A stretch of 64,000 nucleotides of DNA from assembly GCA_040902845.1 (NCBI GenBank), contig JBBDWM010000024.1:25854-89853 (forward strand), in the 5' to 3' direction. The notes beneath the pieces are model-generated. The model saw only the letters and a list, made by a program, of their open reading frames with translations. It made no database searches and had not been told where the DNA came from. The stretch's first letter is position 1; the number at the start of each line of letters is the position of its first letter. Source of the DNA: Acidimicrobiia bacterium. GTDB lineage: Bacteria; Actinomycetota; Acidimicrobiia; Spongiisociales; ZC4RG35. Both the position numbers and the translations under genes were made by a program. Positions 6,777 to 27,449 of the stretch are shown here, one piece after another.

Positions 6777-8764
6777 GCGATCGGACGATGAAGGCAACCG
6801 AACGGATCCAGGGTCAGCCCGGCCCGGGTCGAGGCCCCTTCGGCGGTGGAATGATCGGTCAGAAATCCTCAGCCTTCGGCCCTTCAGCCAGACGTTTGAT
6901 GGGCCGCCTGCGACCTCAGCAGGCGAAAGTCATCGCAGTATTCGCTGCCGGAACGATGAGCGTGGCCCTTTCCGCGATTGGTCCCAAAGTCCTGGGCACA
7001 GCCACAGACTTGATATTCGCCGGGGCGATTGGCAGGAGTCTCCCGACCGGGATCACGAAAGCAGAAGCCATCGCCGGAGCCCAGGCTTCGGGCCAGAATC
7101 AGTTCGCCGCTTTGCTCTCTGGGATGAAGGTCGTGCCCGGACAGGGCATTGACTTCGCGGCTCTCGGCCAGGTGCTCATGGTCGTGCTTGCCCTCTATGT
7201 CGGATCGGCACTGCTCGGGTACCTTCAGGGCTTCCTCCTGAACGACGTGGTGCAGCGAACTGTGTTCCGTTTGCGCTCAGACGTCGAAGACAAGTTGAAC
7301 CGGCTCCCGCTCCGCTACTTCGATCGGCAGCCCCGAGGGGAACTACTGAGTCGGGTGACGAATGACATCGACAATGTCTCACAGAGCCTTCAACAGACGA
7401 TGAGCCAGCTCCTGACTTCGCTGCTGACGATCGTGTTCGTAATGGGGATGATGTTCTACATCTCCCCCACCCTGGCGCTCATCGCCCTCGTGACTATCCC
7501 GATCACAATGGTCATCGCAGGGCTGGTCATGCGAAAGTCCCAACGGCAGTTCGTCTCTCAGTGGAGACGCACCGGCAGCCTGAACGCCCAGATCGAAGAG
7601 TCGTTCACCGGGCATTCCTTGGTCAAGATCTTCGGCCGCCAGAAAGAGGTGCAGGCCACCTTCGAGGTTGAGAACGATGGGCTATACGAGGCCAGCTTCC
7701 GGGCCCAGTTTCTCTCGGGGCTCATCATGCCGATCATGATGTTCATTGGGAACCTGAACTACGTGATCATCGCCGTGGTTGGAGGGCTTCGAGTCGCCAG
7801 CGGGACCATGAGCCTCGGCGACGTGCAGGCGTTCGTTCAGTACTCACGCCAATTCACCCAGCCAGTCACCCAGGTCGCCTCAATGGTCAACCTTCTGCAA
7901 TCAGGTGTGGCATCGGCCGAGCGGGTCTTCGAGCTGCTCGACGCCGAAGAGGAAGTTCCGGATGACCACCATCCCAGCATGGTGGGAGAAAGACACGGCC
8001 GTGTCGTTTTCGAAGATGTGTCCTTCAAGTACGAAGAGGACCGCCCCCTTATCGAGGATCTGAGCTTGAACATCGAGCCGGGCCATACGGTGGCCATCGT
8101 CGGCCCCAACGGCGCAGGCAAGACGACGTTGGTGAATCTGATTATGCGGTTCTACGAGCTCGATGAGGGTCGCATCTCGATCGACGGTATCGACATCGCC
8201 CGGCTGCGCCGGTCCGACCTTCGCTCCGGGATCGGCATGGTGCTCCAGGACACCTGGTTGTTCCATGGGACGATTCGGGAGAACATCGCCTACGGGCGGC
8301 CCAACGCGACCGAGGACGAGATCATGGAGGCGGCCCAGGCCACGTTCGTCGATCGCTTCGTCCACAGTCTCCCGGACGGTTACGACACCGTCATCGACGA
8401 CGAAGGCGCAAGCGTCAGCACCGGGGAGAAGCAGTTGATCACCATCGCACGTGCCTTCCTCGCCGACCCCGCGTTGTTGATCCTCGACGAGGCCACCAGT
8501 TCGGTCGATACCCGGACTGAGCTCTTGGTCCAGCACGCGATGGCGGCACTCCGGACCGACCGCACCAGCTTCGTGATTGCCCACCGGCTTTCGACCATCA
8601 GGGACGCCGACCTGATCCTGGTTATGGAACAGGGCCGGATCGTGGAGCAGGGAAACCATTCCGAGCTCATCGCCCTCGACGGGTCCTACGCCACTCTCTA
8701 CAACTCGCAGTTCATGGGATCGGACCAGCCACCGGAGCCCGAGCCGGCGATGAAGGTGGCGTAG
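6773..8764 (+). CDS. ABC transporter permease/ATP-binding protein (partner half-transporter, heterodimeric exporter)
   Basis: It overlaps the first half-transporter by 4 nt. The NBD has GPNGAGKTT, signature [14 protein letters not shown] and [12 protein letters not shown], plus an extended N-terminal extracytoplasmic loop. Confidence 0.9.
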
Positions 8765-14125: not shown

Positions 14126-15259
14126 ATGATCGAACGCCCGGCTTTCACCATCGGCATCGAAGAGGAGTATCTCGTCGTCGACCGGGAGTCACGTGATCTC
14201 CTCAGGAGCCCACCGCCCGAGATGTGGGACTCGTTGCGAGAGGTGCTCGGCCCGCAGGTGACTCCTGAGTTCCTCAAGGCGCAGATCGAGGTGGGAACCA
14301 AGGTGTGCACCCGGGTTCAGGACGCCCGCGAGGATCTCGCCAGTCTGAGAACGGACCTTTCGAGCGTGGTGAATGAGTACGGGGCAGCCATCATTGCCGC
14401 TTCCACCCATCCTTTCGCCAACTGGGCCGACCAGGAGACGACCGATCAGCCCCGATACATCAATCTGGCGGCCGACTACCAACAAGTGGCCCGCCAACTG
14501 GTGATCTGTGGGATGCATGTCCACGTCGGAATCGAAGATCCCCATCTCCGGATCGACCTGATGAACCAGGTGAAATACATGCTCCCCCATCTGCTGGCAT
14601 TGACCACCTCGTCCCCCTTCTGGGCCGGTAGCCCAACCGGGCTTCTCGCCTATCGGCTGATCATCTTCAAGAACCTGCCACGGACCGGGCTCCCCCAGGA
14701 TTTCGTCTCGTGGGGTGAGTACGAGCGGACCGTCGAGCTGATGATCGACGCCGGGCTCATCGACAGCCCGAGCAGTCTGTGGTGGGACATTCGGCCCTCG
14801 GGCCGATACCCGACGCTCGAGATGCGAGTGAGTGATGTCTGCACCCGTCTCGACGACGCCATCACCGTGGCCGCCATCTACGTCTGTCTGCTGTCGATGT
14901 TGTTTCGCCTCAGGAAGCAGAACCAGAGATGGCGCACCTATCCCCCGTTTCTGATCGCAGAGAACATGTGGCGCGCCCAGCGCTACGGAACCGAAGGCTC
15001 TTTGGTTGATTTCGGCAAGGGTGAGTTGGTCCCTTTCCCCGATCTCGTCGAGGAGCTCATCGAGACCCTGGCCCAGGACTCGGTGGAGCTCGGTGTCCGC
15101 GACGAGGTCCGGCATGCACGGACCATCGTCCAACAGGGGACCAGCGCCCATCGTCAGCTCGCGACCTACGAGGCTGCGCTCGCCTCGGGAGCGAGTAACG
15201 ACGATGCCCTACGTACGGTGGTCGACGGTCTGATCGAGGACACCCTTTTCGGCATCTGA
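14126..15259 (+). CDS. Carboxylate-amine ligase YbdK / glutamate-cysteine ligase family 2
   Basis: The 377-aa protein reads FTIGIEEEYLVVD...ICGMHVHVGI...WWDIRPSGRYPTLEMRVSD, which are GCS2 hallmarks. Confidence 0.85.
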   Translation: MIERPAFTIGIEEEYLVVDRESRDLLRSPPPEMWDSLREVLGPQVTPEFLKAQIEVGTKVCTRVQDAREDLASLRTDLSSVVNEYGAAIIAASTHPFANWADQETTDQPRYINLAADYQQVARQLVICGMHVHVGIEDPHLRIDLMNQVKYMLPHLLALTTSSPFWAGSPTGLLAYRLIIFKNLPRTGLPQDFVSWGEYERTVELMIDAGLIDSPSSLWWDIRPSGRYPTLEMRVSDVCTRLDDAITVAAIYVCLLSMLFRLRKQNQRWRTYPPFLIAENMWRAQRYGTEGSLVDFGKGELVPFPDLVEELIETLAQDSVELGVRDEVRHARTIVQQGTSAHRQLATYEAALASGASNDDALRTVVDGLIEDTLFGI

Positions 15260-15306
15260 CGGGCCGCGGTACCGTTGCCAAGGCCCCAATCCGGAAGAAG
15301 AAAGCC

Positions 15307-16089
15307 TTGGCCCATCCCATTCGCATCGCCGTTCAACTGCAACCCCAACACGCCGACTACTCCCAGATCAGGGCGGCAGTCGTCAAGGCCGAGGAGTTGG
15401 GAGCCGACATCGTGTTCAACTGGGACCACTTCTACCCACTCAGCGGCGATCCCGACGGGAAGCATTTCGAGTGTTGGACCATGCTTGCCTCGTGGGCCGA
15501 GATCACGGAGCGAGTTGAAATCGGCGCCCTGGTCACCTGCAACAGCTACCGCAACCCGGATCTTTTGGCCGATATGGCGCGCACCGTCGATCATGCCTCG
15601 GAGGGCCGACTCATCTTCGGGATCGGGGCGGGATGGTTCGAACGGGACTATGACGAGTACGGGTACGAATTCGGGACTGCCGGCTCCAGGCTGGCCGACC
15701 TGAGGGCAGCCCTACCCCGGATCGAAGCCCGGTGGCGCCAACTCAACCCCGCCCCCACCCGGAAGATCCCGATCATGATCGGCGGCGGTGGCGAGAGAAA
15801 AACACTCCGCTACACCGCCGAACACGCCGACATCTGGCACGGTTTCGGACAAGCCGAGATCATCCGCCACAAGAACCAGGTCCTCGACGATTGGTGCCGG
15901 CAGTTGGGCCGGGATCCGTCCCAAATCGAACGATCCTGTGGCGCCAACGCGCGCCGCCCTGAATCCGGTGACGCCTTCGTCGAAGCCGGCGCCAACCTGA
16001 TCACCCTGGGTCTAGACGGGCGATCGGGTTACGACCTGGAGCCGGTGGTCGATTGGCTTGCGTGGCGAGACGAGAAGAACCGCGCCTGA
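15307..16089 (+). CDS. LLM-class F420-dependent oxidoreductase (luciferase-like)
   Basis: TTG start; 260-aa TIM-barrel LLM motifs (ADIVFNWDHF, GRLIFGIGAGW). Confidence 0.75.
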   Translation: MAHPIRIAVQLQPQHADYSQIRAAVVKAEELGADIVFNWDHFYPLSGDPDGKHFECWTMLASWAEITERVEIGALVTCNSYRNPDLLADMARTVDHASEGRLIFGIGAGWFERDYDEYGYEFGTAGSRLADLRAALPRIEARWRQLNPAPTRKIPIMIGGGGERKTLRYTAEHADIWHGFGQAEIIRHKNQVLDDWCRQLGRDPSQIERSCGANARRPESGDAFVEAGANLITLGLDGRSGYDLEPVVDWLAWRDEKNRA

Positions 16090-16095
16090 CCGAAG

Positions 16096-16962
16096 CTAGA
16101 CGCTCACCAGCGCCTTGTCGGCGTCGGCCGAGACGAATTCTTGCGTCCTGTCCAGCCACCAAATCATCACGACGCCACCGACGCCTGCAGCGAGACCGCT
16201 CAGTTGATTCCAGGTGAATCCCCCAACCACCGCGTCCCCCATCCCGAAACGCAGGCCGTCGAGAAGGAAGCGCTGGAAGCCATACCAGGCGACCCAGATG
16301 AAGAAGAGTTGGCCGTAGTGAAGCCGGAAGCGGCGGTAGACCAAGAAGAGGACACCCAGCAGCACCGCGGCGCCGATCAGGTCGTAGAGGGCCACATGGT
16401 GATAGATCCCACAAAACCCGTCGGCACCAACCGTCGACTCGGTGCACTCCAGGCCGTTGTGCTGGGGGGCCACGTCGTAACCGGGTCGGATCCCGTAACC
16501 CCACCACGCGGTCGTCGCCCTGCCCAGATGCTCGACAATGGCAAGGTCACCGATCCTCCCTACGACGGTGCCCAGCGCCAGTCCGAACGATGATGCATCC
16601 AGTGTGGCCAGGACCGGCATCCCCAACTGACGCATCCGCCACCCACCGGCGAGGATGCCTCCCAGGAACCCACCCATGATCGAGAAGTTCCCCGCGATCG
16701 GATTCAATGCCTCGAGCAACGGGGTGTCGCCCATGATTTGAGCCGGGGCGGTGGAATAGCGGGCACCGAGCAGGGCTCCGATCAGGCCCCAGGTCAGGCA
16801 TGACTGGTACTTCACCGTGTCGAAGCCACGTTTCTTCAACTCCCGGGTGGCGATCCAGGCACCGGCCACGAACCCGAGAGCGGCAAACACCCCGTGCAGG
16901 GAGAAGTTGATCGGGCCCAGCTCCCAGATCGGGATCGGTGGATAAGTGATCACGGCAAGCAT
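16096..16962 (-). CDS. lgt: Prolipoprotein diacylglyceryl transferase
   Basis: The 288-aa multi-TM protein has the Lgt signature region GxxYxxA...GRIGDLAIVEH. Confidence 0.9.
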   Translation of the reverse strand: MLAVITYPPIPIWELGPINFSLHGVFAALGFVAGAWIATRELKKRGFDTVKYQSCLTWGLIGALLGARYSTAPAQIMGDTPLLEALNPIAGNFSIMGGFLGGILAGGWRMRQLGMPVLATLDASSFGLALGTVVGRIGDLAIVEHLGRATTAWWGYGIRPGYDVAPQHNGLECTESTVGADGFCGIYHHVALYDLIGAAVLLGVLFLVYRRFRLHYGQLFFIWVAWYGFQRFLLDGLRFGMGDAVVGGFTWNQLSGLAAGVGGVVMIWWLDRTQEFVSADADKALVSV

Positions 16963-16971
16963 GGAAGGGGA

Positions 16972-17105
16972 GGGTACTTGGTACTCAGTACTGGGTACTT
17001 AGACCAGACCGAGTCGCAATACGCAATACGCAATACGCAAAACCAAAACGCAATACGCAAAACGCAAAACGGTGAACGGTCAACGGCGAACGGTCAACGG
17101 TCTCG
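16972..17105. repeat. Composite 7-bp-period tandem repeat tract: (NGGTACT)x4, (CGCAATA)x3, CGCAAAA variants, (ACGGYSA)x5, between divergent lgt and a membrane protein gene
   Basis: It reads GGGTACTTGGTACTCAGTACTGGGTACT ... CGCAATACGCAATACGCAATACGCAAAACCAAAACGCAATACGCAAAACGCAAAACGGTGAACGGTCAACGGCGAACGGTCAACGGTC. The strict heptad periodicity shares motifs with loci 2671-2780 and 43272-43331. Confidence 0.75.
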
Positions 17106-17143
17106 GCCAAAGTCGGCCGGCATTGGAGTTAAAGTCCCGCAAC

Positions 17144-18298
17144 GTGAGCGATCTGCTGCCGACTGTGGCTGCCGCCTTGAACACACCTGAGAGTCTCATC
17201 CGACGATCCGCCGCTGCCCGGGCCGCCGCCAACGGCACGACGATCGACGAAGTGCTGGCTGCATGGGCCGGAGGCGCCCCAATCGTCACCGTGACACCGG
17301 CACCGCCCCCGGAAGCCGCCGCGGAGCCCACCCCGTCGCCTGCACCCGTGGCCGCCGCCTCCGTGATCGAGGTCCCAGCCCCGGTTGCCGTGGCCGTCGA
17401 ACCCGCACCGGAGCCGGTGGCGCCCATCGAACCGGTTCCCCTCTCCACGAGAATCCGGAGTGCCAGCAGGGTCGGCGCCTGGACAGGGTCAGTCCTCGGC
17501 CTCACCGGTTTCCTGATCGCTACCACCTGGTGGGCGCAGAACGCCACCGTCATCGGTGGGGGCCCTTACACCCCGGTGATTCAGGCCACATCGACCTCGG
17601 TCATCATCGGTGTCGCCCTGGTCAGCATCGTCTTTGGCGCCATCACCGCCGGGATATCCCGCGCCTCGGCAGCGTGGGCCCATCCCGGAATGCAACTCAG
17701 AAACTCCGCGGCTTCTACCGGGTGGTTGGGCGCCCTGATCGGCTTGCCTCTCGGTGTCGGGGCGGCGGCAATTTTGACGAGTGGCTTCGGGACGCCAGTT
17801 GAGGGTATCGAAGGCATGGTGCAACTCCCCGTGCTCCCGACGCTTGCGGTGATGCTTCTCGGTGGGGCTGTTCTAGGTGGGATCACCGCCGCCGCGACCC
17901 AGTCGGTGGCGGTCCCGGTAGCCGTGGCCGGTGACTCCGATGAGATCGCCAAGGTAAAGAGTCGTCTGGGGGGAGCACTGACGATTCCCGCCGTGGGGCT
18001 GCTCATCCTCGTGTCGCTGGTGCTCCCCTTTGCCTGGGCCCTTATCGAGTCGAGTCACCTGACGTCAGGAGGAGCGGCCGTGGTGGCGATAATCACCGCC
18101 CTCGGTATCCTCGGGTTCGCCTCCCTCGCCGGAACCCGGCCCAATGTCAAGATCAGCCTCGGCGAAGCCATGGTCGCCCTGATCGGGATCGCCACCGTCC
18201 TCCTAATCGTCTTCGCGGTATTGCTCGCTCGAAGCGCTGGAGAGGGACAAGAAGAGGAAACAGGCGAAGAGGCCGCAGTGGCTCTCATCCTCGAGTAG
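17144..18298 (+). CDS. Hypothetical membrane protein with Pro/Ala-rich linker (track start 17072 lies inside the repeat tract; GTG 17144 is more plausible)
   Basis: It has an N-terminal soluble domain, a PAPPPEAAAEPTPSPAPVAA linker, then at least 6 TM helices. The track's N-terminus MNGQRRTVNG is a translation of the ACGGT repeats. Confidence 0.5.
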   Translation: MSDLLPTVAAALNTPESLIRRSAAARAAANGTTIDEVLAAWAGGAPIVTVTPAPPPEAAAEPTPSPAPVAAASVIEVPAPVAVAVEPAPEPVAPIEPVPLSTRIRSASRVGAWTGSVLGLTGFLIATTWWAQNATVIGGGPYTPVIQATSTSVIIGVALVSIVFGAITAGISRASAAWAHPGMQLRNSAASTGWLGALIGLPLGVGAAAILTSGFGTPVEGIEGMVQLPVLPTLAVMLLGGAVLGGITAAATQSVAVPVAVAGDSDEIAKVKSRLGGALTIPAVGLLILVSLVLPFAWALIESSHLTSGGAAVVAIITALGILGFASLAGTRPNVKISLGEAMVALIGIATVLLIVFAVLLARSAGEGQEEETGEEAAVALILE

Positions 18299-18324: not shown

Positions 18325-19284
18325 CTAGGTCGTATTCACCGACCCGGAGAAATCACCGAGGGCCAGGGCATCGCGCACCGACTCGGCGATCTCCCTCGCC
18401 ACCAGTTCCTGGGCTTCCACGGTTGACGCCCCGAGATGGGGTGTCAACACCACGTTGGGCAGATCGAGAAGTGGGCTGTCCGGTGAGAGCGGCTCGGACT
18501 CGAAGACATCGAGAGCCGCGCCGGCGAGGTGACCGTCGATCAACGCCTGGGCAAGTGCCTCCTCATCGATCACACCCCCCCTCGAGACGTTGACCAAGAA
18601 CGCGCCCGGCTTCATATGGGATATGGCGTCCTCGTCGATCAGGTGCAGGGTCTCATCGGTGAGGGGGACGTGGAGAGAGATGATGTCCCCGTGAGTCAGG
18701 ACCTCGTCGAGTCCGGTCAGAGCAAGGCCAAGGTCGTCTGCGCGTTCCGTGGTCAGATAGGGGTCGTAGACAAGGACTCTCATCCCAAAGGCCCGGCACC
18801 GAATGGCAACCTCGCTCCCGATCCGACCGGCCCCGACCAGGCCCAGGGTGCGGTCCTTGAGCTGCACACCCCTCAGACGCGAGCGCTCCCATTTCCCGGC
18901 GCGCATAGATCGGTCCGCCTCCGCCACCCGTCGGACAACCGAGAGGATCAATGCCATCGTGAGCTCGGCCGCAGCCACCGTATTGCCGGCTGGGGAGTTG
19001 AGGACTGCGATTCCCCGTTCGGTCGCCGCCGAAAGATCGATATTGTCCACCCCGACCCCGGCCCTTCCAACGACTTTGAGCCGCGGGCCGTACGCCAACA
19101 TCTCCCGGGTCACCTTGGTGGCGCTTCTGACCACCAGCCCGTCGGCATCGGCCAGGGCCGCCTGAAAGGCATCGGTCGCCGAGTCGTCGATCCGGATGAC
19201 CTGAAATCGATCGTCCTCCAGCAACGGAGCCAGACCCGACTCGGAGACGTGGTCGGTGACCACGACTCTGAAATGGTCACTCAT
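18325..19284 (-). CDS. D-isomer-specific 2-hydroxyacid dehydrogenase (short SerA-like phosphoglycerate dehydrogenase)
   Basis: It has the NAD-binding motif GLVGAGRIGSEVA and the catalytic R/E/H triad region. It is coupled by 4-nt overlap to the upstream aminotransferase. Confidence 0.8.
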   Translation of the reverse strand: MSDHFRVVVTDHVSESGLAPLLEDDRFQVIRIDDSATDAFQAALADADGLVVRSATKVTREMLAYGPRLKVVGRAGVGVDNIDLSAATERGIAVLNSPAGNTVAAAELTMALILSVVRRVAEADRSMRAGKWERSRLRGVQLKDRTLGLVGAGRIGSEVAIRCRAFGMRVLVYDPYLTTERADDLGLALTGLDEVLTHGDIISLHVPLTDETLHLIDEDAISHMKPGAFLVNVSRGGVIDEEALAQALIDGHLAGAALDVFESEPLSPDSPLLDLPNVVLTPHLGASTVEAQELVAREIAESVRDALALGDFSGSVNTT

Positions 19285-20378
19285 CGGATGACTGCTTCCA
19301 GGTCGTCGAGAAGGAGGTTCAACTCGGAGACGGTGCGGTCACCCATGTGCCCGATCCGGATCGTGGTCTCCTTTAGCTTCCCGTAGCCCGAGCCGATCAC
19401 CCAATTTCGCTCTTTCATGCCCGCCACGACATCGGGACCGGCGAGTCGCGGTGGGAGGCTGATGCAGGACACTGTTGGCGAGCGATGACCTTCGGGGGCA
19501 AACGGCGCCAACCCCAGTCCAGACATGTCATCGATCCACTCGAGCGTTCGCTCCCGCATCGCCGTGTGACGCTTCCACCGCGTCTCGATGCCCTCGGCGA
19601 GGATCCTCTCCAACTGCAACCGCAACGCGTACATCAGCGAGATCGCCGGTGTGGCCGGAGTTTGCAGAGCCTCCAGACTCCGGGTCAATGCAATCAGATC
19701 GAAATAGACACCTTTGTCGGACAGGGTGGCGGAACGCTCCAGCATCGCATCGGAGGCAACCCCGAAGGCCATGCCCGGCGGCAGCGCCAGGGCTTTCTGC
19801 GAACCGGTGAGCACCCAATCGAGAAGCCAATCGTCGGTGCGAACCTCGGTGCCACAGACTCCGGTGACCGAATCCACCAGCAGAAGGGCGCGCTCGTCGC
19901 CTGCCACCACCTGGGCCAGGCCTTCCAGGTCCTGGAGGACCCCGGTGGAGGTCTCCGAATGAGTGACGGTGACCGCGTCATAGACACCTGAGGCCAATCG
20001 ATCGGCGAGTCCTGCGGGGAGGTGATATTCACCCCACGGCACCTCCCATACATCGACGTTCCGCCCACAGGCTGTCGCGATGTCGACAAATCTCTTGGAG
20101 AACGCCCCATTGACCAGGGAGAGAACCTTGCCGTCTCCTACCCCGTTCCTGATCCCGGCCTCCATCAACCCAGTGGCCGAGGAGGTCGAGATGATCACGG
20201 GTCGCTCGGTGAGGAAGACCTGTTTCAGACCGACCTGGATCTCGGCGATCAGGTCCTGGATCGCCGATCCCCGATGACCGATCATGGGATGGGTTTGGGC
20301 AGCCAGCACCTCGGAATCCACCTCAGTGGGCCCGGGTAGGAAGAACCGACCAATCGACGTGGTTGCGTGCTGCCTCAA
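19281..20378 (-). CDS. Class V aminotransferase (serine-glyoxylate / phosphoserine aminotransferase-like)
   Basis: The 365-aa protein has a PLP-lysine region TGSQKALALPPG. Its operon with the SerA-like gene suggests serine metabolism. Confidence 0.8.
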   Translation of the reverse strand: MRQHATTSIGRFFLPGPTEVDSEVLAAQTHPMIGHRGSAIQDLIAEIQVGLKQVFLTERPVIISTSSATGLMEAGIRNGVGDGKVLSLVNGAFSKRFVDIATACGRNVDVWEVPWGEYHLPAGLADRLASGVYDAVTVTHSETSTGVLQDLEGLAQVVAGDERALLLVDSVTGVCGTEVRTDDWLLDWVLTGSQKALALPPGMAFGVASDAMLERSATLSDKGVYFDLIALTRSLEALQTPATPAISLMYALRLQLERILAEGIETRWKRHTAMRERTLEWIDDMSGLGLAPFAPEGHRSPTVSCISLPPRLAGPDVVAGMKERNWVIGSGYGKLKETTIRIGHMGDRTVSELNLLLDDLEAVIR

Positions 20379-20408
20379 GATATGTGCTCCGTTGGTTCCG
20401 AGCCCCCG

Positions 20409-20738
20409 CTATCCGTCGGCCAGGCTCAATGCGAACCGGACGTTATCCACCAACTCCCAACCGACCAATATCGGCTGGCCGCTGAGTCGATGCTCACGAA
20501 GGTGGGGGAGCGCAAATTCGTAGTCACCGTCGTCCACTGGAAGAAACAGCCACTCCTCACCCTCGACCAGCACCGAGAACGAGATCACCTGCTCCAGGCT
20601 TCCTTCGACGGAGATGACAACCCCCCGAGCGGTGCCCGAGGTTTGGGTGCAGGCCATGACCGCCACGAGCGCCACGATTCCGGTCAATCGGGCCGCGGAA
20701 TTCAGAAGGTGGCGGTCGGCGACCTTGGCCGCGGTCAA
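20409..20738 (-). CDS. Small lipoprotein (~109 aa), TTG start overlapping the ctaG stop (TTGA); hidden inside spurious track ORF 20409-21056
   Basis: In frame within the track ORF is ...(M)TAAKVADRHLLNSAARLTGIVALVAVMAC|TQTSG (a signal peptide plus lipobox), then GVVISVEGSLEQVISFSVLVEGEEWLFLPVDDGDYEFALPHLREHRL.... GC3 is about 80%, against about 61% for the competing plus-strand ORF 20367-20894. Confidence 0.45.
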   Translation of the reverse strand: MTAAKVADRHLLNSAARLTGIVALVAVMACTQTSGTARGVVISVEGSLEQVISFSVLVEGEEWLFLPVDDGDYEFALPHLREHRLSGQPILVGWELVDNVRFALSLADG

Positions 20739-21544
20739 CCCGCCCTCAGCGACGATTCCAACCTCTCCCAGTCCCGCTCCTGCTTGGTCCAGCGGAACCA
20801 GATCACCGCAATGGTCCCCCACAACAAAAATCCTCCTCCCAGCTTCATGATGACGCCGGCGATCGTCTGGTCGGCCACCGCGGTGAGGCCGTAGGCGAGG
20901 GCAGCGTCGCCATAGACCGGGTAGATCGGGACCGAGGAAAAGGTGAGAAACGAAGCCGGGACGGTAGGAAGCAGGGACTGGAGGAACAGATAGAGCATCT
21001 GGGCGGGCGGGGTAAGACGCGGGATCGCCGCGGTAGGCGAGAAGATCGGGAGCCACATGAGGATCGCCGCACCGAACAGCCAGGCGTGGACAAAGAAATG
21101 AATCGACCGACTGGTCAGCATCCAGCCCACCAGTTCGGGCCAGTGGATCAGGATAAACGTGGCGTTGAAGATGACGAACGCCGCCACCGGTCGTGCCAGG
21201 GGCCGCAACAGTCGCGCCACCTTCGGGTGTCCGAATGTGGCGTCACCCAGCCAGCGCGGACAGCCCCGAAGCAGCAAAGGCGGCACCACCAGGGCAAGGA
21301 CCATGTGCTCGATCATGTGCAGGGTGAACAAGGCAGTCTCCCCGATGTCGTGGATCGGCCACCCGGAGACCACCAAGAGCAGAGCGAGGGCCCCATACCA
21401 CTGCCAGCGCTGGCCCGCCGTCGCCCGGGGCGCTTCGGGGGCCATCAGCGGCCGGAGACGCTTGTCGGCGTACCAGTACCCGAAACCGAGGACGAAGACC
21501 AACAGCCACAGGTCGAAGTGTGGGTGCCAGGGAGGCAACGGCAT
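20735..21544 (-). CDS. ctaG: Cytochrome c oxidase caa3-type assembly factor CtaG (Caa3_CtaG family)
   Basis: The 269-aa multi-TM protein has the HMIEHMVLALVVPPLLL motif. Confidence 0.75.
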   Translation of the reverse strand: MPLPPWHPHFDLWLLVFVLGFGYWYADKRLRPLMAPEAPRATAGQRWQWYGALALLLVVSGWPIHDIGETALFTLHMIEHMVLALVVPPLLLRGCPRWLGDATFGHPKVARLLRPLARPVAAFVIFNATFILIHWPELVGWMLTSRSIHFFVHAWLFGAAILMWLPIFSPTAAIPRLTPPAQMLYLFLQSLLPTVPASFLTFSSVPIYPVYGDAALAYGLTAVADQTIAGVIMKLGGGFLLWGTIAVIWFRWTKQERDWERLESSLRAG

Positions 21545-21852
21545 CAGGATCCCCTGATGACCAGGACTCCCAGGGCGGCCAGGACCACGGTGTAGAGAGA
21601 AGCGGCCAGCACGAAGCCGCCGGTGAAGAAGCGGCTCAGGGTCGACTTCTCGTACCGGAGATGCATATAGAAGGCCACGACGATCACGAACTTCAGCGTG
21701 GCCAGGATGATGAGTGAGATGGCGTTCAGGGCGCCCAAGTCGTAGGACTTGTTCACGTAGTACATACCCACCTCGATGGCGGTGAGTACCCCCAACAGCA
21801 CCGCGATCTTCCAGTATTGGGCCGGTGTCGGGTGGTGATGCTCCGCGGTCAT
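21544..21852 (-). CDS. Cytochrome c oxidase subunit IV (prokaryotic CoxIV)
   Basis: The 102-aa protein has two TM helices and sits immediately downstream of ctaE. Confidence 0.7.
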   Translation of the reverse strand: MTAEHHHPTPAQYWKIAVLLGVLTAIEVGMYYVNKSYDLGALNAISLIILATLKFVIVVAFYMHLRYEKSTLSRFFTGGFVLAASLYTVVLAALGVLVIRGS

Positions 21853-22478
21853 GCGGGCGGCACCGACAACAGATAGACGACGGTGAAGATGACGATCCAG
21901 ATGATGTCGACGAAGTGCCAGTAGAGGCCGACCAGTTCGAGGTTCATCCCGTGTTTCTCACTGAGCCCACCCGGACGTCGTGAGATGCCCCACAGGGAGA
22001 GAAGCATGATCACACCGATCGCCACATGGGTGCCGTGAAACCCGGTGAGGACATAGAAGGCGGAGGCCGCCGGGTTGGTGGTGAGCTTCATGTCGTTGTT
22101 GACGATGAATTCGGTGAACTCGAAGACCTGGCCGCCGAGGAACACCGCGCCCAGGGCCGCAGTGGCGAACAACCAGGTCCTGGTCCCGTTGATGTCGGCT
22201 CGCGTCAGGGCGTTGTGGGCGAGGACCATCGTCAACGAGCTCATCAACAGGACGAACGAACTGACCGAAGTGAATGGTATGTCGTAGATCTCGGAGGGAT
22301 AGGTGCCGGCAAATCCCGCCCGGTTCGAATACAGCAGGTAGTTCGAGATCAGGGCGCCGAAGAACAGGAACTCCGAGCTGAGGAACAGCCACATCCCGAG
22401 TTTGCGGTTGTCGACACCTGTCGACTCGCGTTCGGGATGATCCAATGGAGCCTCGTGGAGGATCTCAGCCATAGCCAC
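21849..22478 (-). CDS. ctaE: Cytochrome c oxidase subunit III
   Basis: The 209-aa protein reads GMWLFLSSEFLFFGALI ... LYWHFVDIIWIVIF. Confidence 0.9.
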   Translation of the reverse strand: MAMAEILHEAPLDHPERESTGVDNRKLGMWLFLSSEFLFFGALISNYLLYSNRAGFAGTYPSEIYDIPFTSVSSFVLLMSSLTMVLAHNALTRADINGTRTWLFATAALGAVFLGGQVFEFTEFIVNNDMKLTTNPAASAFYVLTGFHGTHVAIGVIMLLSLWGISRRPGGLSEKHGMNLELVGLYWHFVDIIWIVIFTVVYLLSVPPA

Positions 22479-24507
22479 CCTCGTGCTTGTCAGAGTGCTC
22501 CCCGTCGTCGTGTTGGACGAGATGCGGTTCCTCGAGCGGCTCGATCGCCCACCCGACCACCGAGATGAGGCCGATGATGACGCCGACGAAGATCATGGCC
22601 TTGCCCCAGAGTGCCTCGTGGTAGATGATCCCGTAGAAGATGGTCGGGAAAGCGGTGGCCATGAAAAAGGGGAAATATGAGGGATTGGGGAGGTGGATCG
22701 GCGAGGCCGGGTTGAGCTGATCATGCTCGATCTTGGCCACGATCTCATCCGCATCCGGCTTGCGCACCGCCCGCCCATCCGGGTCTTCGTCGTACTTGAG
22801 ATGCCAGAAATGGTCGAGACGGGTAACCACCGGGGGCACCGCGAAGTTGTACTCGGGCGTGGGGTTGGGACTCATCCACTCAACGGTCCTCGCGTCCCAT
22901 GGGTCGAGGCCGGAGAGCTGGCCGCGGCGCTTGCTGGTGACCCAGTTGACGATGAAGATCGCAATGGAGAGGGCGATGATGAAGGCACCCACGGTCACCG
23001 CCAGGTTCCACGGCTCGAGACCGGTCTCCGGTGCGTACTTCCAGGTTCGACGAACCATCCCCTGAAGACCCAACCAGTGCATTGGGGCGAAGGTGAGATT
23101 GAACCCGAGCAACTGGAGCCAGAAATGGGTCTTGCCCAGTTTCTCGTTCATCACCCTCCCGGTGAGCTTGGGGAACCAGTAATAGAGGCCGCCGAAGAGC
23201 CCGAAGATGGCGCCGCCGAACAGCACATAATGGAAGTGGGCCACGATGTAATAGGTGTCTGTCTGCTGCCAGTCCGAGGGGACGACGGCGTGGGTCACCC
23301 CGGAGAGCCCGCCGATGGTGAACATGGCCAAAAACCCGATGGCGAACAGCATCGAGGTGTTGAGCCGTATTCGACCCATCCACATCGTCCCCAGCCAGTT
23401 GAAGATCTTGATCCCGGTGGGAATGGCGATGGTCATCGTCGACAGGCCGAAAGCCGCCTGGGCCACCGGGGTGATTCCCGAGGCGAACATGTGATGGGCC
23501 CACACCCCGAAGCCGAGGAAACCGATGGCGGCGCCGGCAAAGACCACCGCCGAATAGCCGAAGAGGGGTTTGCGCGAGAAGGTGGGGAGGATCTCGGAAA
23601 CCATCCCCATCGCAGGCAGGACCAGGATGTAGACCTCGGGGTGGCCGAACAACCAGAACAGGTGTTGCCACAGAATTGGATCTCCCCCGCCAACGGGGGC
23701 GAAGAACAACGACCCGAACTGACGGTCGAACGTCACCATGAACAGCGCTACCGCGATGATCGGGATTGAGAACAGCAGAAGGAACGCCACAACCATCGAC
23801 ATCCAGACAAACACCGGCATTCGGAGCAGGCGCATCCCCTTGGCCCGCAGGTTGAGGATGGTGACGATGAAGTTGACCGCAGAGACCAAGGAGGCAAGGC
23901 CCAGGATCTGCACCCCCAACGCCCAGTAGTCCATAGCGGTGCCCGGCGAGTAGAGCGGCCCGGCGTTGGGCTGGTAGCCGAACCATCCCCCGTCAGGTGA
24001 GTTGGCAAGGAAGTTGAAGCTGCCGGGTCCTCCCCCGAGAGCCAGGTTGCCGTCGACACCTCCGATGCCATCGACCCCGACCGGGGCCAGAGAGGTGCCG
24101 AAGATGAAGGTCGAATAGAGGAAGATCCCGCCGAAGAGGAAGACCCACCAGGAGAGGGCGTTCAACCTGGGGAAGGCAACGTCCCGCGCTCCGATCATCA
24201 GCGGGAGCAGGTAATTCATGAATGCAGCCCCGGTCGGCATCACGAAGAGAAAGATCATCGTGGTGCCATGCATGGTGAACAGGGCGTTGTAGGCGCCGGC
24301 GGTGAGGAACTCGCTGTTGGCCTGGGCAAGTTGGATCCGAAGCAGCAAGGCCTCGACACCGCCGATGATGAAGAAGGTGAAGGCCGCGTAGCCGTACATG
24401 ATGCCGATCCGCTTGTGATCGACGGTCGTTATCCACGACCAGATACCGGTCTTCGCCGATGGACGGCGAAAGATGGTGGTCTGCGGTCGCTCGGCGGTGG
24501 CGGTCAT
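22465..24507 (-). CDS. ctaD: Cytochrome c oxidase subunit I, with a ~100-aa C-terminal extension carrying two extra TM helices
   Basis: It has GHPEVYILVLPAMG and the conserved heme/CuB histidines. The 680-aa length is about 100 aa longer than a typical CtaD. Confidence 0.9.
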   Translation of the reverse strand: MTATAERPQTTIFRRPSAKTGIWSWITTVDHKRIGIMYGYAAFTFFIIGGVEALLLRIQLAQANSEFLTAGAYNALFTMHGTTMIFLFVMPTGAAFMNYLLPLMIGARDVAFPRLNALSWWVFLFGGIFLYSTFIFGTSLAPVGVDGIGGVDGNLALGGGPGSFNFLANSPDGGWFGYQPNAGPLYSPGTAMDYWALGVQILGLASLVSAVNFIVTILNLRAKGMRLLRMPVFVWMSMVVAFLLLFSIPIIAVALFMVTFDRQFGSLFFAPVGGGDPILWQHLFWLFGHPEVYILVLPAMGMVSEILPTFSRKPLFGYSAVVFAGAAIGFLGFGVWAHHMFASGITPVAQAAFGLSTMTIAIPTGIKIFNWLGTMWMGRIRLNTSMLFAIGFLAMFTIGGLSGVTHAVVPSDWQQTDTYYIVAHFHYVLFGGAIFGLFGGLYYWFPKLTGRVMNEKLGKTHFWLQLLGFNLTFAPMHWLGLQGMVRRTWKYAPETGLEPWNLAVTVGAFIIALSIAIFIVNWVTSKRRGQLSGLDPWDARTVEWMSPNPTPEYNFAVPPVVTRLDHFWHLKYDEDPDGRAVRKPDADEIVAKIEHDQLNPASPIHLPNPSYFPFFMATAFPTIFYGIIYHEALWGKAMIFVGVIIGLISVVGWAIEPLEEPHLVQHDDGEHSDKHEGGYG

Positions 24508-25559
24508 TCGTTGCTCTCCAACCAGATGATCAGATCGTCGATCTCCTGAGCGGTTAGGGCCAGGTTGGGCATGAAGCTACCGGGTTTCACCGAGGGTGGA
24601 TCCGCCAGCCACTCCTTGAGCGCCCCCTCCCGGGTCTCGCCCTCACCGGGCAGGGTGGCTCCGGCAAACACGTTGCGTGAGGCGAAATGGGTGAGCTCGG
24701 GACCGGAGAAGGCGTCGTCGGGAACGATGTTGGGATTGGTGTCAAAACGCACGGTGTGACACTGGATGCATCCCTTGGCCAGGTACACCTGATAGCCGGC
24801 GTACTCGGGACTGCCTTCGGTGGGGAGCGGGGTCGTATCGGCCTGATCGGCCAGCCACCCCTCGTACTCCGCCGGGGGCAGCGCGAGCACCCGGGCCCGC
24901 ATCAACGAGTGGGAGAGGCCACAGAACTCGGCGCACTGACCCCAGAACTCCCCTGGCTCGTCTGCTTGGAGCCGCAACTGGGTGGTCTGGCCCGGAATCA
25001 GATAGCGCTTCCCGTTGAGGGCCGGAACCCAGAAGTTGTGGATCACATCCTCGGACGTCATGTTGGCGCAGACCTCCTGGCCCGCCGGAATCACCATCAC
25101 GTTGGCCGTCGCCACCCCGGCTTCGGGGTAGCGGTACTCGAACCACCATTGATGCCCGATCACCTCGATCTCGATCGCGCCCTCACCGCACTCGGTCAGA
25201 TCGAAGACGGCCGCCGTGGTTGGGACTGCAATCCCGGCCAGGATCAAGGCGGGGATCACTGTCCACAGCACCTCGAGTTTCGGGCTTCCATGAAGCTGCT
25301 TAGCCTCCTTGGCGCCCTCCCGGTCCCGATAGAGAAAGACGGCGACCAGGATCGCCCCCTGGACGAGGATGAAGACCGCGGTTGCGATCCAGAAAACCGG
25401 CCAGAACAGCTCGTCTTCGCGACGGGAGAAAGGCCCCTTCGGGTCCAGCGCCGTCATCGGGGCATCCTCGATACCGATCAGCGAACAGGCGCTGAGAACC
25501 ATGGCGGCCCCGACCAAAATGCCGAGGCGTGCAAGACGTTGACGGGACGGGGCCATCGG
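24504..25559 (-). CDS. ctaC: Cytochrome c oxidase subunit II with fused C-terminal cytochrome c domain (caa3-type)
   Basis: It has the CuA site HNFWVPALNGK...CAEFCGLSHSLM and a C-terminal CIQCH heme-c motif. The likely start is MAPSRQRLARLGILVGAAMVLSAC. The track's upstream 40 aa come from the palindromic repeat. Confidence 0.85.
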   Translation of the reverse strand, partial: PMAPSRQRLARLGILVGAAMVLSACSLIGIEDAPMTALDPKGPFSRREDELFWPVFWIATAVFILVQGAILVAVFLYRDREGAKEAKQLHGSPKLEVLWTVIPALILAGIAVPTTAAVFDLTECGEGAIEIEVIGHQWWFEYRYPEAGVATANVMVIPAGQEVCANMTSEDVIHNFWVPALNGKRYLIPGQTTQLRLQADEPGEFWGQCAEFCGLSHSLMRARVLALPPAEYEGWLADQADTTPLPTEGSPEYAGYQVYLAKGCIQCHTVRFDTNPNIVPDDAFSGPELTHFASRNVFAGATLPGEGETREGALKEWLADPPSVKPGSFMPNLALTAQEIDDLIIWLESNE

Positions 25560-25631
25560 TTCGGCATCATACGGACCTCGCCAACGAGCGACCAACTTCT
25601 GAGCTGTGCCCAGAATTCCGGGGTGAGGCCC

Positions 25632-25686
25632 CCCGTAATTGAGACACAGAGGGGTCACATGCGGACCTGAGGGTCCCAATTACGGG
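25632..25686. repeat. 55-bp palindromic element, copy B (reverse orientation, ~85% identical to 11836-11890), inside the cta operon between the lipoprotein stop and the ctaC start
   Basis: It reads CCCGTAATTGAGACACAGAGGGGTCACATGCGGACCTGAGGGTCCCAATTACGGG. Its reverse complement aligns base-for-base with copy A, with an imperfect stem. Confidence 0.7.
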
Positions 25687-25695
25687 AAGGACCCC

Positions 25696-26529
25696 TCAGG
25701 GGGCCACTGCGTCGATCGCCGAGCTCAGTTCCTCGTCACGGACAGCTCCCTCGAAGGAGGCGGTGACGGTCCCGGAACTGTCGACTACGAACACCCAGGG
25801 CTCCGAGGGCAGACCCCATTCACTGACCGCCGGCACCGCGGTCAACTGGCTCTGGTCGGTCACGGTGAGGTCCTCGTAGATCTCGACGTGGATGAAAGCG
25901 ACGCCGGGGTAGCTCTCGCGGAGGTTCTTGACCTGATCCAGAATGGGCCCACAGGTTGCACTCGCGCAGAACCCCGGGGTGGCGAAAACGATCACCACAG
26001 GATCCCCGCTCATCACCGCTTGGGCGACAGACACTTCGTACATCGCCGGGTCGGGGTCAGGATCCGAGCTGATCTCTGCGAGGTCGGGGTAATCGGCCGA
26101 AATCCGGGTCTCCGAGGCCGGGGCAGTGTCACCGCGCTCGATGACACCAGGATCGTCGACCGCCACCAACCCCATCGGGCCCGCGGTGTCGAATCCCTCG
26201 GCGTCGAGCGTCACCTGGTAGGTGGCTGCCTCGGGGATCATCATCCGGGCCACATAGAGACCTCTGACGTCTTCGACGGTCCACATGAACTCGGTCGGAT
26301 AGGTCTCGATGGGGGCGCCGTTTTGGTCACGAAGGGTGACCGTGGCTGGGTGATCGGGGGAGGCCAGATACTCGTTGGTCTCCTGGTCGATCAACGCGAA
26401 CATGATTCGCTGCTCGCCCACCCCAATGCCGGCTTGCGAGGAAGCGATGATGGCAAACGGAGTCACCGCCTCTGAGGAGCAGGCCCCTACGACAAGTAGC
26501 ACGCCAGCCAGGACCAGGCCACGTCTCAT
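25696..26529 (-). CDS. Lipoprotein with C-terminal thioredoxin-like domain (atypical CxxxxCGP motif); possible CuA/oxidase maturation factor (TlpA/Sco-like)
   Basis: It has the signal peptide plus lipobox MRRGLVLAGVLLVVGAC|SS and the C-terminal stretch VVIVFATPGFCASATCGPILDQ...PWVFVVDSSGTV. It overlaps the ctaB stop by 4 nt and sits directly upstream of ctaC. Confidence 0.55.
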   Translation of the reverse strand: MRRGLVLAGVLLVVGACSSEAVTPFAIIASSQAGIGVGEQRIMFALIDQETNEYLASPDHPATVTLRDQNGAPIETYPTEFMWTVEDVRGLYVARMMIPEAATYQVTLDAEGFDTAGPMGLVAVDDPGVIERGDTAPASETRISADYPDLAEISSDPDPDPAMYEVSVAQAVMSGDPVVIVFATPGFCASATCGPILDQVKNLRESYPGVAFIHVEIYEDLTVTDQSQLTAVPAVSEWGLPSEPWVFVVDSSGTVTASFEGAVRDEELSSAIDAVAP

Positions 26530-27449
26530 CGGATCAGCACGTCCAGCATCACCGAAGCGAATAGCGCAGCGAGATACACCGTCGATGTGGTGAAAAGACG
26601 CATGGCCTCATCCGGGTGGAGATAGACCCTCCAGCAGTCCCAAAGAAACCATGCGCCGAGGCCGATTGCGGCCAGCAGGTAGATCCAGCTCATCCCGGCC
26701 ACCGGAACCAGGAGCAGGGTGACGCCGACCATCACGGCCGTGTAGAGGAGCATCTTCCTTGTCGTTGCCTCCACCCCAACGACCACCGGGAGCATCGGGA
26801 TCCCGGCCCGGGCATAGTCCTCCCGATAGCGGATGGCCAGGGCCCAGAAATGAGGGGGGGTCCAGTAGAACACGATGAAGAACAGAACCCAAGCCGGCAA
26901 GGCGACCCCACCCGTGATCGCCGCCCAACCGACCAATACCGGAGCCGCCCCGGCTGCTCCCCCGATGACGATGTTCTGAGTCGTCGACCGTTTCAGCGCC
27001 ACCGTGTAGACGAACACATAGAAGAGAAGTGCTGCCGTTGAGATGGCGGCGGCCAGCAGGTTGGTTGTGACCCAGAGCCATGCGAACCCTGCGATGCCGA
27101 GGCAAATGCCGAAGACGAGGGCGTTGGTCGGGGCCACCTCGTGTTGGGCCAGCGGCCGACCTTTGGTGCGTCGCATCACCGCGTCGATGTCACGATCGAA
27201 GTAGCTGTTCAGCGCGTTGGCGCCGCCTGCAGACAGTGTGCCCCCGATCAGGGTGGTGATCAGGATCCATGCTCCCGGCCAGGTCCCGGCCGCCAGCACC
27301 ATCGCAGGCACCGTGGTGATGAGGAGCAATTCGATGATGCGGGGCTTGGTCAGCGCCAGGTAAGCCATGACAGTCGACCGGGTGCGTTGGGCGGGCACCG
27401 ACATGACGACGTCAGGTGTGACCGGCGATCCTGGAAGATCAGTCGACAT
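26526..27449 (-). CDS. ctaB: Protoheme IX farnesyltransferase (heme O synthase)
   Basis: The 307-aa UbiA-family protein reads NSYFDRDIDAVMRRTKGRPL ... WTPPHFWALA. Confidence 0.9.
   Translation of the reverse strand: MSTDLPGSPVTPDVVMSVPAQRTRSTVMAYLALTKPRIIELLLITTVPAMVLAAGTWPGAWILITTLIGGTLSAGGANALNSYFDRDIDAVMRRTKGRPLAQHEVAPTNALVFGICLGIAGFAWLWVTTNLLAAAISTAALLFYVFVYTVALKRSTTQNIVIGGAAGAAPVLVGWAAITGGVALPAWVLFFIVFYWTPPHFWALAIRYREDYARAGIPMLPVVVGVEATTRKMLLYTAVMVGVTLLLVPVAGMSWIYLLAAIGLGAWFLWDCWRVYLHPDEAMRLFTTSTVYLAALFASVMLDVLIR

Follow-up and report, generated by a model that had tools for sequence, protein, structure and literature searches.

The 64,000-nucleotide stretch of contig JBBDWM010000024.1 from an Acidimicrobiia bacterium (assembly GCA_040902845.1), called the window here, contains a caa3 oxidase cluster on the minus strand. 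The cluster includes a small lipoprotein gene (20409-20738) directly downstream of ctaG. The gene is real and is genetically tied to the caa3 oxidase biogenesis genes. There is close to an even chance that its product is an extracytoplasmic copper-handling accessory factor for assembly of the caa3 oxidase. The gene and its parts are as follows:

20409..20738, minus strand: small lipoprotein coding sequence, 109 codons plus a TAG stop (20411-20409), supported by the open reading frame (ORF) and translation, an identical GenBank protein and purifying selection
20735..20738, minus strand: TTGA junction, read from the sequence, in which the TTG start (20738-20736) overlaps the ctaG TGA stop (20737-20735)
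20743..20747, minus strand: GAGGG Shine-Dalgarno-like motif, 5 nt upstream of the TTG, read from the sequence
20652..20738, minus strand: predicted signal peptide, residues 1-29, with K5, R9 and R17 in the n-region, LTGIVALVAV as the h-region and V-M-A-C as the lipobox, from a pattern match
20649..20651, minus strand: Cys30, predicted lipid-modified first mature residue, invariant in 35 close homologs and present in 129/134 wider ones
20412..20651, minus strand: mature domain, residues 30-109, an oligonucleotide/oligosaccharide-binding (OB) fold barrel in the AlphaFold2 model
20490..20504, minus strand: H79-L-R-E-H83 motif on a predicted helix, candidate metal ligands from the family alignment
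20415..20417, minus strand: D108, the penultimate residue, candidate third ligand from the family alignment

Reading frame

The reading frame was tested on 80 mature-domain codons of the window and of 34 related loci (35 sequences). Variable columns number 47, 34 and 77 at the first, second and third codon positions, and pairwise differences number 8658, 6162 and 21584. Read in the lipoprotein frame, synonymous changes are about equal to or more numerous than non-synonymous changes in every listed comparison (for example 25 vs 12, 28 vs 15 and 25 vs 30). Non-synonymous changes make up nearly all of the differences in the antisense frame (34 against 3 synonymous, 41 against 2), and 8 relatives have stop codons there. 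Purifying selection therefore acts in the minus-strand frame and not in the antisense ORF. This codon-position pattern, together with 86 close and about 377 wider homolog clusters, bears out the original prediction of a minus-frame gene coupled to ctaG through a TTGA overlap.

Base composition discriminates the two frames weakly. The GC content by codon position in the lipoprotein frame is 0.68/0.42/0.77, which is a third-position GC (GC3) of 77%. For the antisense ORF, which is in phase, the values in the shared part are 0.77/0.42/0.68, and GC3 for the full-length ORF is 0.74. The GC3 of about 80% first proposed for the lipoprotein frame is thus near the observed value, whereas the 61% proposed for the competing ORF was too low (74% over the full length, 68% over the shared part) and the contrast was overstated.

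The modest GC3 contrast (77% vs 68-74%) is the one point in favor of a spurious ORF, in which case the plus-strand ORF 20367-20894, or no gene at all, would be real instead. This is extremely improbable. Third-position variation and a synonymous excess are found only in the minus frame, hundreds of protein homologs share conserved motifs, and the lipoprotein has a confident AlphaFold2 model. The plus-strand ORF has no family match and is refuted by the substitution pattern and the stop codons in the 8 relatives.

Start codon and junction with ctaG

The minus-strand junction reads ...GAG GGC GGG TTG ACC..., while the ctaG frame ends in ...AGG GCG GGT TGA. The TTG opens the 109-codon frame one base out of phase with ctaG, and the GAGGG motif in front of it may function as a ribosome-binding signal. 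Among the canonical starts in the window, this TTG (20738) alone gives a signal peptide with a basic n-region; the GenBank entry uses the same start. Two other starts were rejected. A TTG 12 codons before Cys30 would leave no basic n-region. The 215-amino-acid reading from the GTG at 21056 overlaps ctaG for 320 nt, and conservation of the family begins only at the lipobox.

The start position in relatives ranges from 37 nt inside ctaG to about 40 nt past it. Many lineages carry a GTG or ATG 36 nt before the ctaG stop codon ends; the corresponding triplet of the window is CTG. These recurrent upstream starts are not independent evidence because they are partly fixed by the coding constraint on ctaG. 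The window and its nearest relatives (loci L015, L020, L016-L018 and L007) have a TTG or ATG in a 4-nt TTGA/ATGA overlap. In locus L021 (3879-5297) and in protein P0139 the ctaG frame continues into the lipoprotein frame. This apparent CtaG-lipoprotein fusion was set aside as a probable assembly indel artefact; the neighboring genes of L021 are also fragmented. No second copy of the small lipoprotein gene was found in the window.

Lipoprotein signal

The product begins with MTAAKVADRHLLNSAARLTGIVALVAVMA, followed by C30-TQTSG..., and has the sequence features of a bacterial lipoprotein (Lgt/Lsp substrate). A lipobox rule of the PROSITE PS51257 type asks for a basic residue in the first seven positions, an uncharged h-region and a lipobox Cys at position 15-35. 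The protein matches this pattern with K5 in the n-region, V-M-A-C as the lipobox and Cys at position 30. The stricter Gram-positive G+LPP pattern, compared by eye, would fail on the long n-region. The lipobox core pattern occurs in 78/86 close and 114/143 wider sequences. The N-terminal part is variable across the family and protein conservation starts at the lipobox Cys. The window also has a gene for the modifying enzyme:

16096..16962, minus strand: lgt, prolipoprotein diacylglyceryl transferase (Pfam PF01790, E 2e-31), 3.5 kb from the lipoprotein gene

The organism therefore has the lipoprotein modification pathway. The predicted lipoprotein signal is upheld by the pattern match, by the near-invariant Cys and by the presence of lgt. 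The protein is almost certainly exported and is probably lipid-modified at Cys30.

Family and candidate metal site

The gene was originally described as unannotated, which is true only of the ORF list used for that prediction. GenBank already has an identical 109-amino-acid entry, MEX1124321.1 ('hypothetical protein WD895_04525 [Acidimicrobiia bacterium]'), from a metagenome-assembled genome (MAG). A word-indexed search gives 86 clusters of close homologs. An exhaustive profile search gives a wider family of 377 representatives (50%-identity clusters) at E<=1e-3, with 52 at E<=1e-10, and nearly all of the 377 are about 100 amino acids long. The named sources are all uncultured Acidimicrobiia or Actinomycetota MAGs, and the names are all 'hypothetical protein' except for two evidently wrong JGI labels. 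Many MAGs of the MFD series (L014, L016, L017, L021-L023 and others) are titled 'uncultured Acidobacteriota bacterium', a title that looks like a taxonomic label set at submission and that is at odds with the matches of their proteins to Acidimicrobiia records.

The window protein has no match in Pfam or NCBIfam. Sixty diverse members searched against Pfam gave 7 sub-threshold hits each to DUF5666 (best E 2e-4) and SH3_Rv0428c (best E 2e-3) and no others, and a second set of 10 members gave no useful Pfam match. No description of the family was found in the literature consulted. The only match in a PDB sequence search aligned family profile positions 38-90 with the third RNA recognition motif (RRM3) of polypyrimidine-tract-binding protein (1qm9/2adc) at E 5e-4. 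The match spans AMSHLNGHKLHGKPIRIT (the 'SHLxxHxxxGxPVxV' region), a beta-hairpin, helix and strand segment resembling PLSHLREHLRSGEPVEVT. Since the predicted fold differs, it was judged a local coincidence.

Conservation was counted in an alignment of 144 family representatives, with per-position totals of 134-142. The invariant polar residues are His79 and His83 (142/142 each), which lie within a '[PS]-H-L-R-[ED]-H' motif with Glu or Asp at position 82 in 115/142. Asp108 is present in 139/140. The other conserved mature positions are structural Gly, Phe, Pro and Val. Only 1-2 residues follow Asp108 in 104/139 members, and His occurs in the tail of 15 of the 34 longer-tailed members, for example ADGGH (...DADGGH), ASGGH and AEDADEH; a DHDHDDGSHDHDH stretch closes P0188. 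Met is absent from the mature domain of 93/124 members and Cys from that of 115/124, and the window protein has no Met after Cys30. These patterns suggest that His79, His83 and Asp108, with Glu82 and in some members a C-terminal His, may form a His/carboxylate metal site.

Predicted fold

The AlphaFold2 model, built with the family alignment, has a predicted local distance difference test score above 90 across the mature domain. It consists of strands 34-46, 51-58 and 61-73, a helix at 79-86 and strands 89-97 and 100-107, an order that corresponds to an OB fold. The beta-rich character originally proposed for the mature domain holds in this model of five strands and one helix; its length is 80 residues and not about 85. 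A Foldseek search places SilF and CusF among its first ten positions, with E values of 4.5e-4 to 4.5e-3 and target-normalized template modeling scores of 0.62-0.71. In an OB fold, strands 3 and 5 are parallel and both end at the helix-capped face. Asp108, at the end of strand 5, should therefore adjoin His79 and His83 at the start of the helix. The guess that the protein is of a metallochaperone type gains support from SilF/CusF as the top fold matches and from the invariant H-x3-H...D set.

Gene neighborhoods in relatives

The gene order was compared in 35 GTDB species-representative genomes, all of which are Acidimicrobiia-type MAGs; 33 of the loci include upstream sequence. The gene directly upstream is ctaG in 33/33, preceded by coxIV, coxIII and coxI. 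A metagenome scan for the subgroup with the FPLPHLR[DE]H motif gave 16 loci, and ctaG is directly upstream in 14 of them. These counts support the link to oxidase biogenesis that the original prediction suggested.

Across at least five arrangements, and in homologs down to 29% identical, the gene keeps its association with oxidase or copper genes although the other flanking genes differ. Two homologs, in L007 (49% identical) and L009 (29% identical), are located after ctaG in loci that lack the downstream aminotransferase and dehydrogenase genes of the window and differ in the upstream flank. A 51%-identical homolog in L003-L006 directly follows coxIV with no ctaG between. In L057 and L059 the gene lies immediately downstream of a co-directional homolog of orf277, a second lipoprotein gene of the oxidase cluster. 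L059 also has a convergent SURF1 gene downstream and a two-component system upstream. In L008, L011 and L012 the gene is convergent with an orf277 homolog and has ctaA and ctaB as flanking genes. Also adjacent are the nuo operon and genes for a polyprenyl synthase and a cupredoxin-domain protein, and two Caa3_CtaG genes are no more than 8 kb away. In L065 the homolog is convergent with, and 6 nt from, genes for the copper-binding proteins CopC (PF04234) and DUF1775 (YcnI-type).

Some of these loci have further features. The order in L059 (4863-9483) is histidine kinase, LuxR-type response regulator, orf277-like lipoprotein, small lipoprotein and convergent SURF1, which suggests a regulated oxidase-assembly module apart from the structural operon. 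L008 has, close to ctaA, ctaB and the small lipoprotein homolog, a gene for a 339-amino-acid protein with a C-terminal cupredoxin domain (5919-6938) and a tandem pair of Caa3_CtaG paralogs with another cupredoxin-like gene between them (14652-16351). In L065 (1291-2877) the homolog is a distant family member (P0260) with the motif FDLHHLHEH, and the gene immediately upstream encodes SelR (methionine sulfoxide reductase B).

Copper best fits as the shared theme of these loci (CtaG, cupredoxins, CopC/YcnI), though ctaA, ctaB and SURF1 are heme a factors. These neighborhoods also bear on two other roles for the protein. The first is a structural accessory, that is, a stabilizing or tethering subunit of the caa3 oxidase or supercomplex in which the His and Asp residues make protein-protein or structural contacts. 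The gene lies inside the structural operon, directly follows coxIV in one lineage and is translationally coupled like the subunit genes. Actinobacterial respiratory supercomplexes also carry extra lipoprotein subunits, such as LpqE in Mycobacterium smegmatis. However, several lineages place the gene away from the structural genes, beside the TlpA-like lipoprotein, ctaA/ctaB, SURF1 or CopC/YcnI, and the invariant H-x3-H and Asp with His-containing tails are more typical of a metal site. A structural role is therefore unlikely.

The second is a role with another metal or ligand, or one with no relation to the oxidase (for example, an envelope OB-fold stress protein), with the position next to ctaG being inherited order. 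The close relatives share the downstream aminotransferase and dehydrogenase genes, so that the whole neighborhood is conserved in the clade; one subgroup is adjacent to guaA without respiratory genes; and the His2-carboxylate set is not metal-specific. The recurrence of the oxidase and copper association in varied arrangements makes inherited gene order a hard explanation, and this role is rather unlikely. In the guaA-adjacent subgroup (L010 8001-8330 and L066 3670-3978) the motif is FDYGFxLxHLYxHQ, and a MatE/polysaccharide-synthesis-type gene is also beside the homolog.

Oxidase cluster in the window

The oxidase cluster upstream of the small lipoprotein gene has the following members:

20735..21544, minus strand: ctaG, Caa3_CtaG family (Pfam PF09678, E 2e-42), upstream partner of the small lipoprotein gene
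21544-21852, minus strand: coxIV, from Pfam and ORF coordinates
21849-22478, minus strand: coxIII, from Pfam and ORF coordinates
22465-24507, minus strand: coxI, from Pfam and ORF coordinates
24504-25679, minus strand: coxII with a cytochrome c domain, from Pfam and ORF coordinates
21544..25679, minus strand: caa3 oxidase structural genes, whole block
25696..26529, minus strand: orf277, second lipoprotein with a thioredoxin-fold C-domain, between ctaB and coxII
26526..27449, minus strand: ctaB, heme O synthase of the UbiA family (Pfam PF01040, E 6e-66), head of the cluster

The overlaps are 4 nt for coxII/coxI, 14 nt for coxI/coxIII, 4 nt for coxIII/coxIV and 1 nt for coxIV/ctaG. Since all of the cox genes in the window overlap or abut, translational coupling is the norm in this operon.

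The orf277 product has an N-terminal lipoprotein signal (MRRGLVLAGVLLVVGA-C), an N-terminal beta domain and a C-terminal TlpA/ResA/DsbE-like thioredoxin fold, with fold matches to ResA and CcmG. GenBank labels it 'thioredoxin family protein'. About 1756 homologs were found. The homologs keep FATPxFCxSxxCGP, with an unusual C-x4-C, and HVE[IV]Y, and they recur beside the small lipoprotein even without the cox operon. TlpA-type reductases maintain Sco and the CuA cysteines of subunit II in the reduced state, and ResA and CcmG reduce the heme-attachment cysteines of apocytochrome c. Either activity would concern the maturation of subunit II at the membrane's outer face.

The orf277 product is also relevant to a third alternative, in which the small lipoprotein is a heme-handling factor, either a membrane-anchored OB-fold chaperone like CcmE or a functional counterpart of Surf1. 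The conserved His residues would then bind heme destined either for subunit II, in its cytochrome c domain, or, as heme a, for subunit I. The OB fold, the membrane anchor and the invariant His residues are consistent with this role, as are the ResA and CcmG fold matches of the orf277-type neighbor (both reduce apocytochrome c), the ctaA/ctaB and SURF1 genes in some loci and the cytochrome c domain itself. However, there is no Pfam CcmE match, the His pair is on the helix between strands 3 and 4, whereas CcmE has its His in a flexible C-terminal tail, the CopC/YcnI and cupredoxin neighbors point to copper, and the tight coupling is to ctaG and not to heme synthesis genes. Heme handling is therefore quite unlikely.

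The small lipoprotein gene was predicted to be the last gene of the cluster. This is true in several relatives but not in the window, where a co-directional aminotransferase gene starts 30 nt downstream and is followed by a 2-hydroxyacid dehydrogenase gene. A scan for promoters and terminators between the lipoprotein and aminotransferase genes found no site. The two downstream genes (18325-20378, minus strand) encode a class-V aminotransferase and a D-2-hydroxyacid dehydrogenase. The best NCBIfam similarity of the aminotransferase, which is below the cutoff, is to aspartate/serine-glyoxylate-type enzymes. In L001 the two are called as one 682-amino-acid product. They may be co-transcribed with the oxidase cluster in this clade. 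The next gene, orf408 (17072-18298, plus strand), encodes a 408-amino-acid protein with about 7 predicted transmembrane segments, an Ala/Pro-rich N-terminal region and no match in Pfam or NCBIfam. A homolog of orf408 is the convergent downstream neighbor of the lipoprotein gene in loci without the aminotransferase and dehydrogenase genes (L003, L007, L009, L048, L053, L061 and L062).

Comparison with known systems

The fold is closest to CusF and SilF, which are periplasmic Cu(I)/Ag(I) metallochaperones with a five-stranded OB barrel of about 80 residues, as in the model of the small lipoprotein. The sequences are not detectably related, with an hhalign probability of 0.5% against the E. coli CusF sequence and no Pfam CusF_Ec match. 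CusF binds Cu(I)/Ag(I) through a His and two Met (plus Trp) on strands 2-3, where the family has no conserved His or Met; its own candidate ligands are on the helix and at the C-terminus. CusF is also soluble and works in the context of an RND (resistance-nodulation-division) efflux pump, whereas the small lipoprotein is predicted to be lipid-anchored in the context of a caa3 oxidase. CcmE, a heme chaperone, is another membrane-anchored OB-fold protein at the membrane's outer face with a functional His, and the small lipoprotein resembles it in its predicted anchor, fold and location and in its His residues.

CopC is a small extracytoplasmic beta protein encoded beside a multi-pass copper-handling membrane protein (CopD-type), which it is thought to serve, and its Cu(II) site uses His and Asp. 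The small lipoprotein would be similar in these respects, but CopC has another fold and no homology to it. Since a separate CopC gene adjoins the homolog in L065, the two proteins are not equivalent. In C. glutamicum CtiP, Caa3_CtaG is fused to a CopD-like domain, and it is this domain that cooperates with CopC (PMC9145763; PMC13344008).

Two small proteins that deliver copper to oxidases would also be similar in role. CtaK (YtkA) of Bacillus subtilis, a lipoprotein anchored in the membrane, acts specifically in caa3 assembly; it has conserved His and Met residues and a tail that reads -EEEHSHHH (PMC9145763; PMC13344008). The small lipoprotein family has the invariant His residues and, in some members, His-containing tails. 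However, neither the window protein nor the 60 diverse members have a Pfam YtkA-like match, the Met of CtaK has no counterpart and the predicted fold is an OB fold. PCuAC, which is small and extracytoplasmic and binds copper, takes part in CuA assembly together with a thioredoxin-fold partner (Sco or TlpA); it often has a His/Met-rich C-terminal extension, and it has a cupredoxin-like fold with the motif H(M)X10MX21HXM (PMC9145763). The recurrent TlpA/ResA-like lipoprotein next to the small lipoprotein is the point of likeness, while the cupredoxin-like fold, Pfam domain and motif of PCuAC are absent from the family. PCuAC and CtaK are themselves unrelated and have the same role in different phyla (PMC9145763; PMC13344008). 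By analogy, the proposed role is closest to that of PCuAC, CtaK or CopC and the fold is closest to that of CusF/SilF, but the protein is a member of none of these families. It appears to represent a new family of independent origin within an established class, the extracytoplasmic lipoproteins that act as oxidase assembly factors or metallochaperones.

Proposed function

Copper, as Cu(II), is the favored ligand because the domain has few Met or Cys residues, an extracytoplasmic location, a CusF/SilF-like scaffold, a candidate His/carboxylate site and CtaG, cupredoxin, CopC or YcnI neighbors. In the proposed mechanism, export and lipidation at Cys30 would tether the 80-residue OB barrel to the outer face of the cytoplasmic membrane. 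The His79/His83/Asp108 site would capture copper, probably Cu(II), at the membrane surface. The copper may then be passed to Caa3_CtaG, to subunit II or to both; the direction of transfer is conjectural. The TlpA/ResA-like lipoprotein encoded by orf277 would prepare subunit II by keeping its cysteines reduced.

Several observations weigh against copper handling. There is no sequence homology to any copper protein, either with the Pfam CusF, PCuAC, YtkA and CopC models or with hhalign to CusF. The margin of SilF and CusF over generic OB folds is modest (Foldseek E of about 5e-4), and the expected clustering of H79, H83 and D108 is argued from OB-fold topology only. A His2-Asp site is not copper-specific and would also be compatible with Zn, Mn, Fe, Ni or heme, and a classical Cu(I) site is excluded since the mature domain mostly lacks Met and Cys. 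The subgroup of L010 and L066 is located beside guaA in loci that show no respiratory or copper genes. The species-representative genomes share the downstream aminotransferase, dehydrogenase, orf408 and lgt genes as well, so the adjacency to ctaG in the close group could be inherited order. Every member of the family comes from an uncultured MAG or a metagenome.

A more specific form of the copper-handling proposal is that the protein is the first of a family, confined to Actinomycetota, of lipid-anchored Cu(II) chaperones with an OB fold, and that this family is the extracytoplasmic partner of Caa3_CtaG and works with the TlpA-like lipoprotein. This is put forward tentatively and is less probable than a general copper-handling role.

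Significance

The copper route to CuA and CuB differs between bacterial phyla and is incompletely known. A 2022 review stresses that one role is filled by small copper proteins with no relation to each other, and describes the function and copper source of Caa3_CtaG as unconfirmed (PMC9145763). The ctaG-coupled lipoprotein, with its predicted CusF-like fold and invariant His/His/Asp set, is a concrete and cheaply testable candidate for a partner of Caa3_CtaG. The expected role belongs to a known category, so that the surprise for a specialist is moderate. Neither Pfam nor NCBIfam has a model for the family (about 377 representatives), which annotations list only as 'hypothetical protein' and which is carried by a large, environmentally abundant, uncultured actinobacterial class. 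If the more specific proposal is true, the family would be a third independently evolved route, after PCuAC and CtaK, for copper delivery to the caa3 oxidase, and it would bear on the copper source of Caa3_CtaG, which is unsettled in the reviewed literature (PMC9145763).

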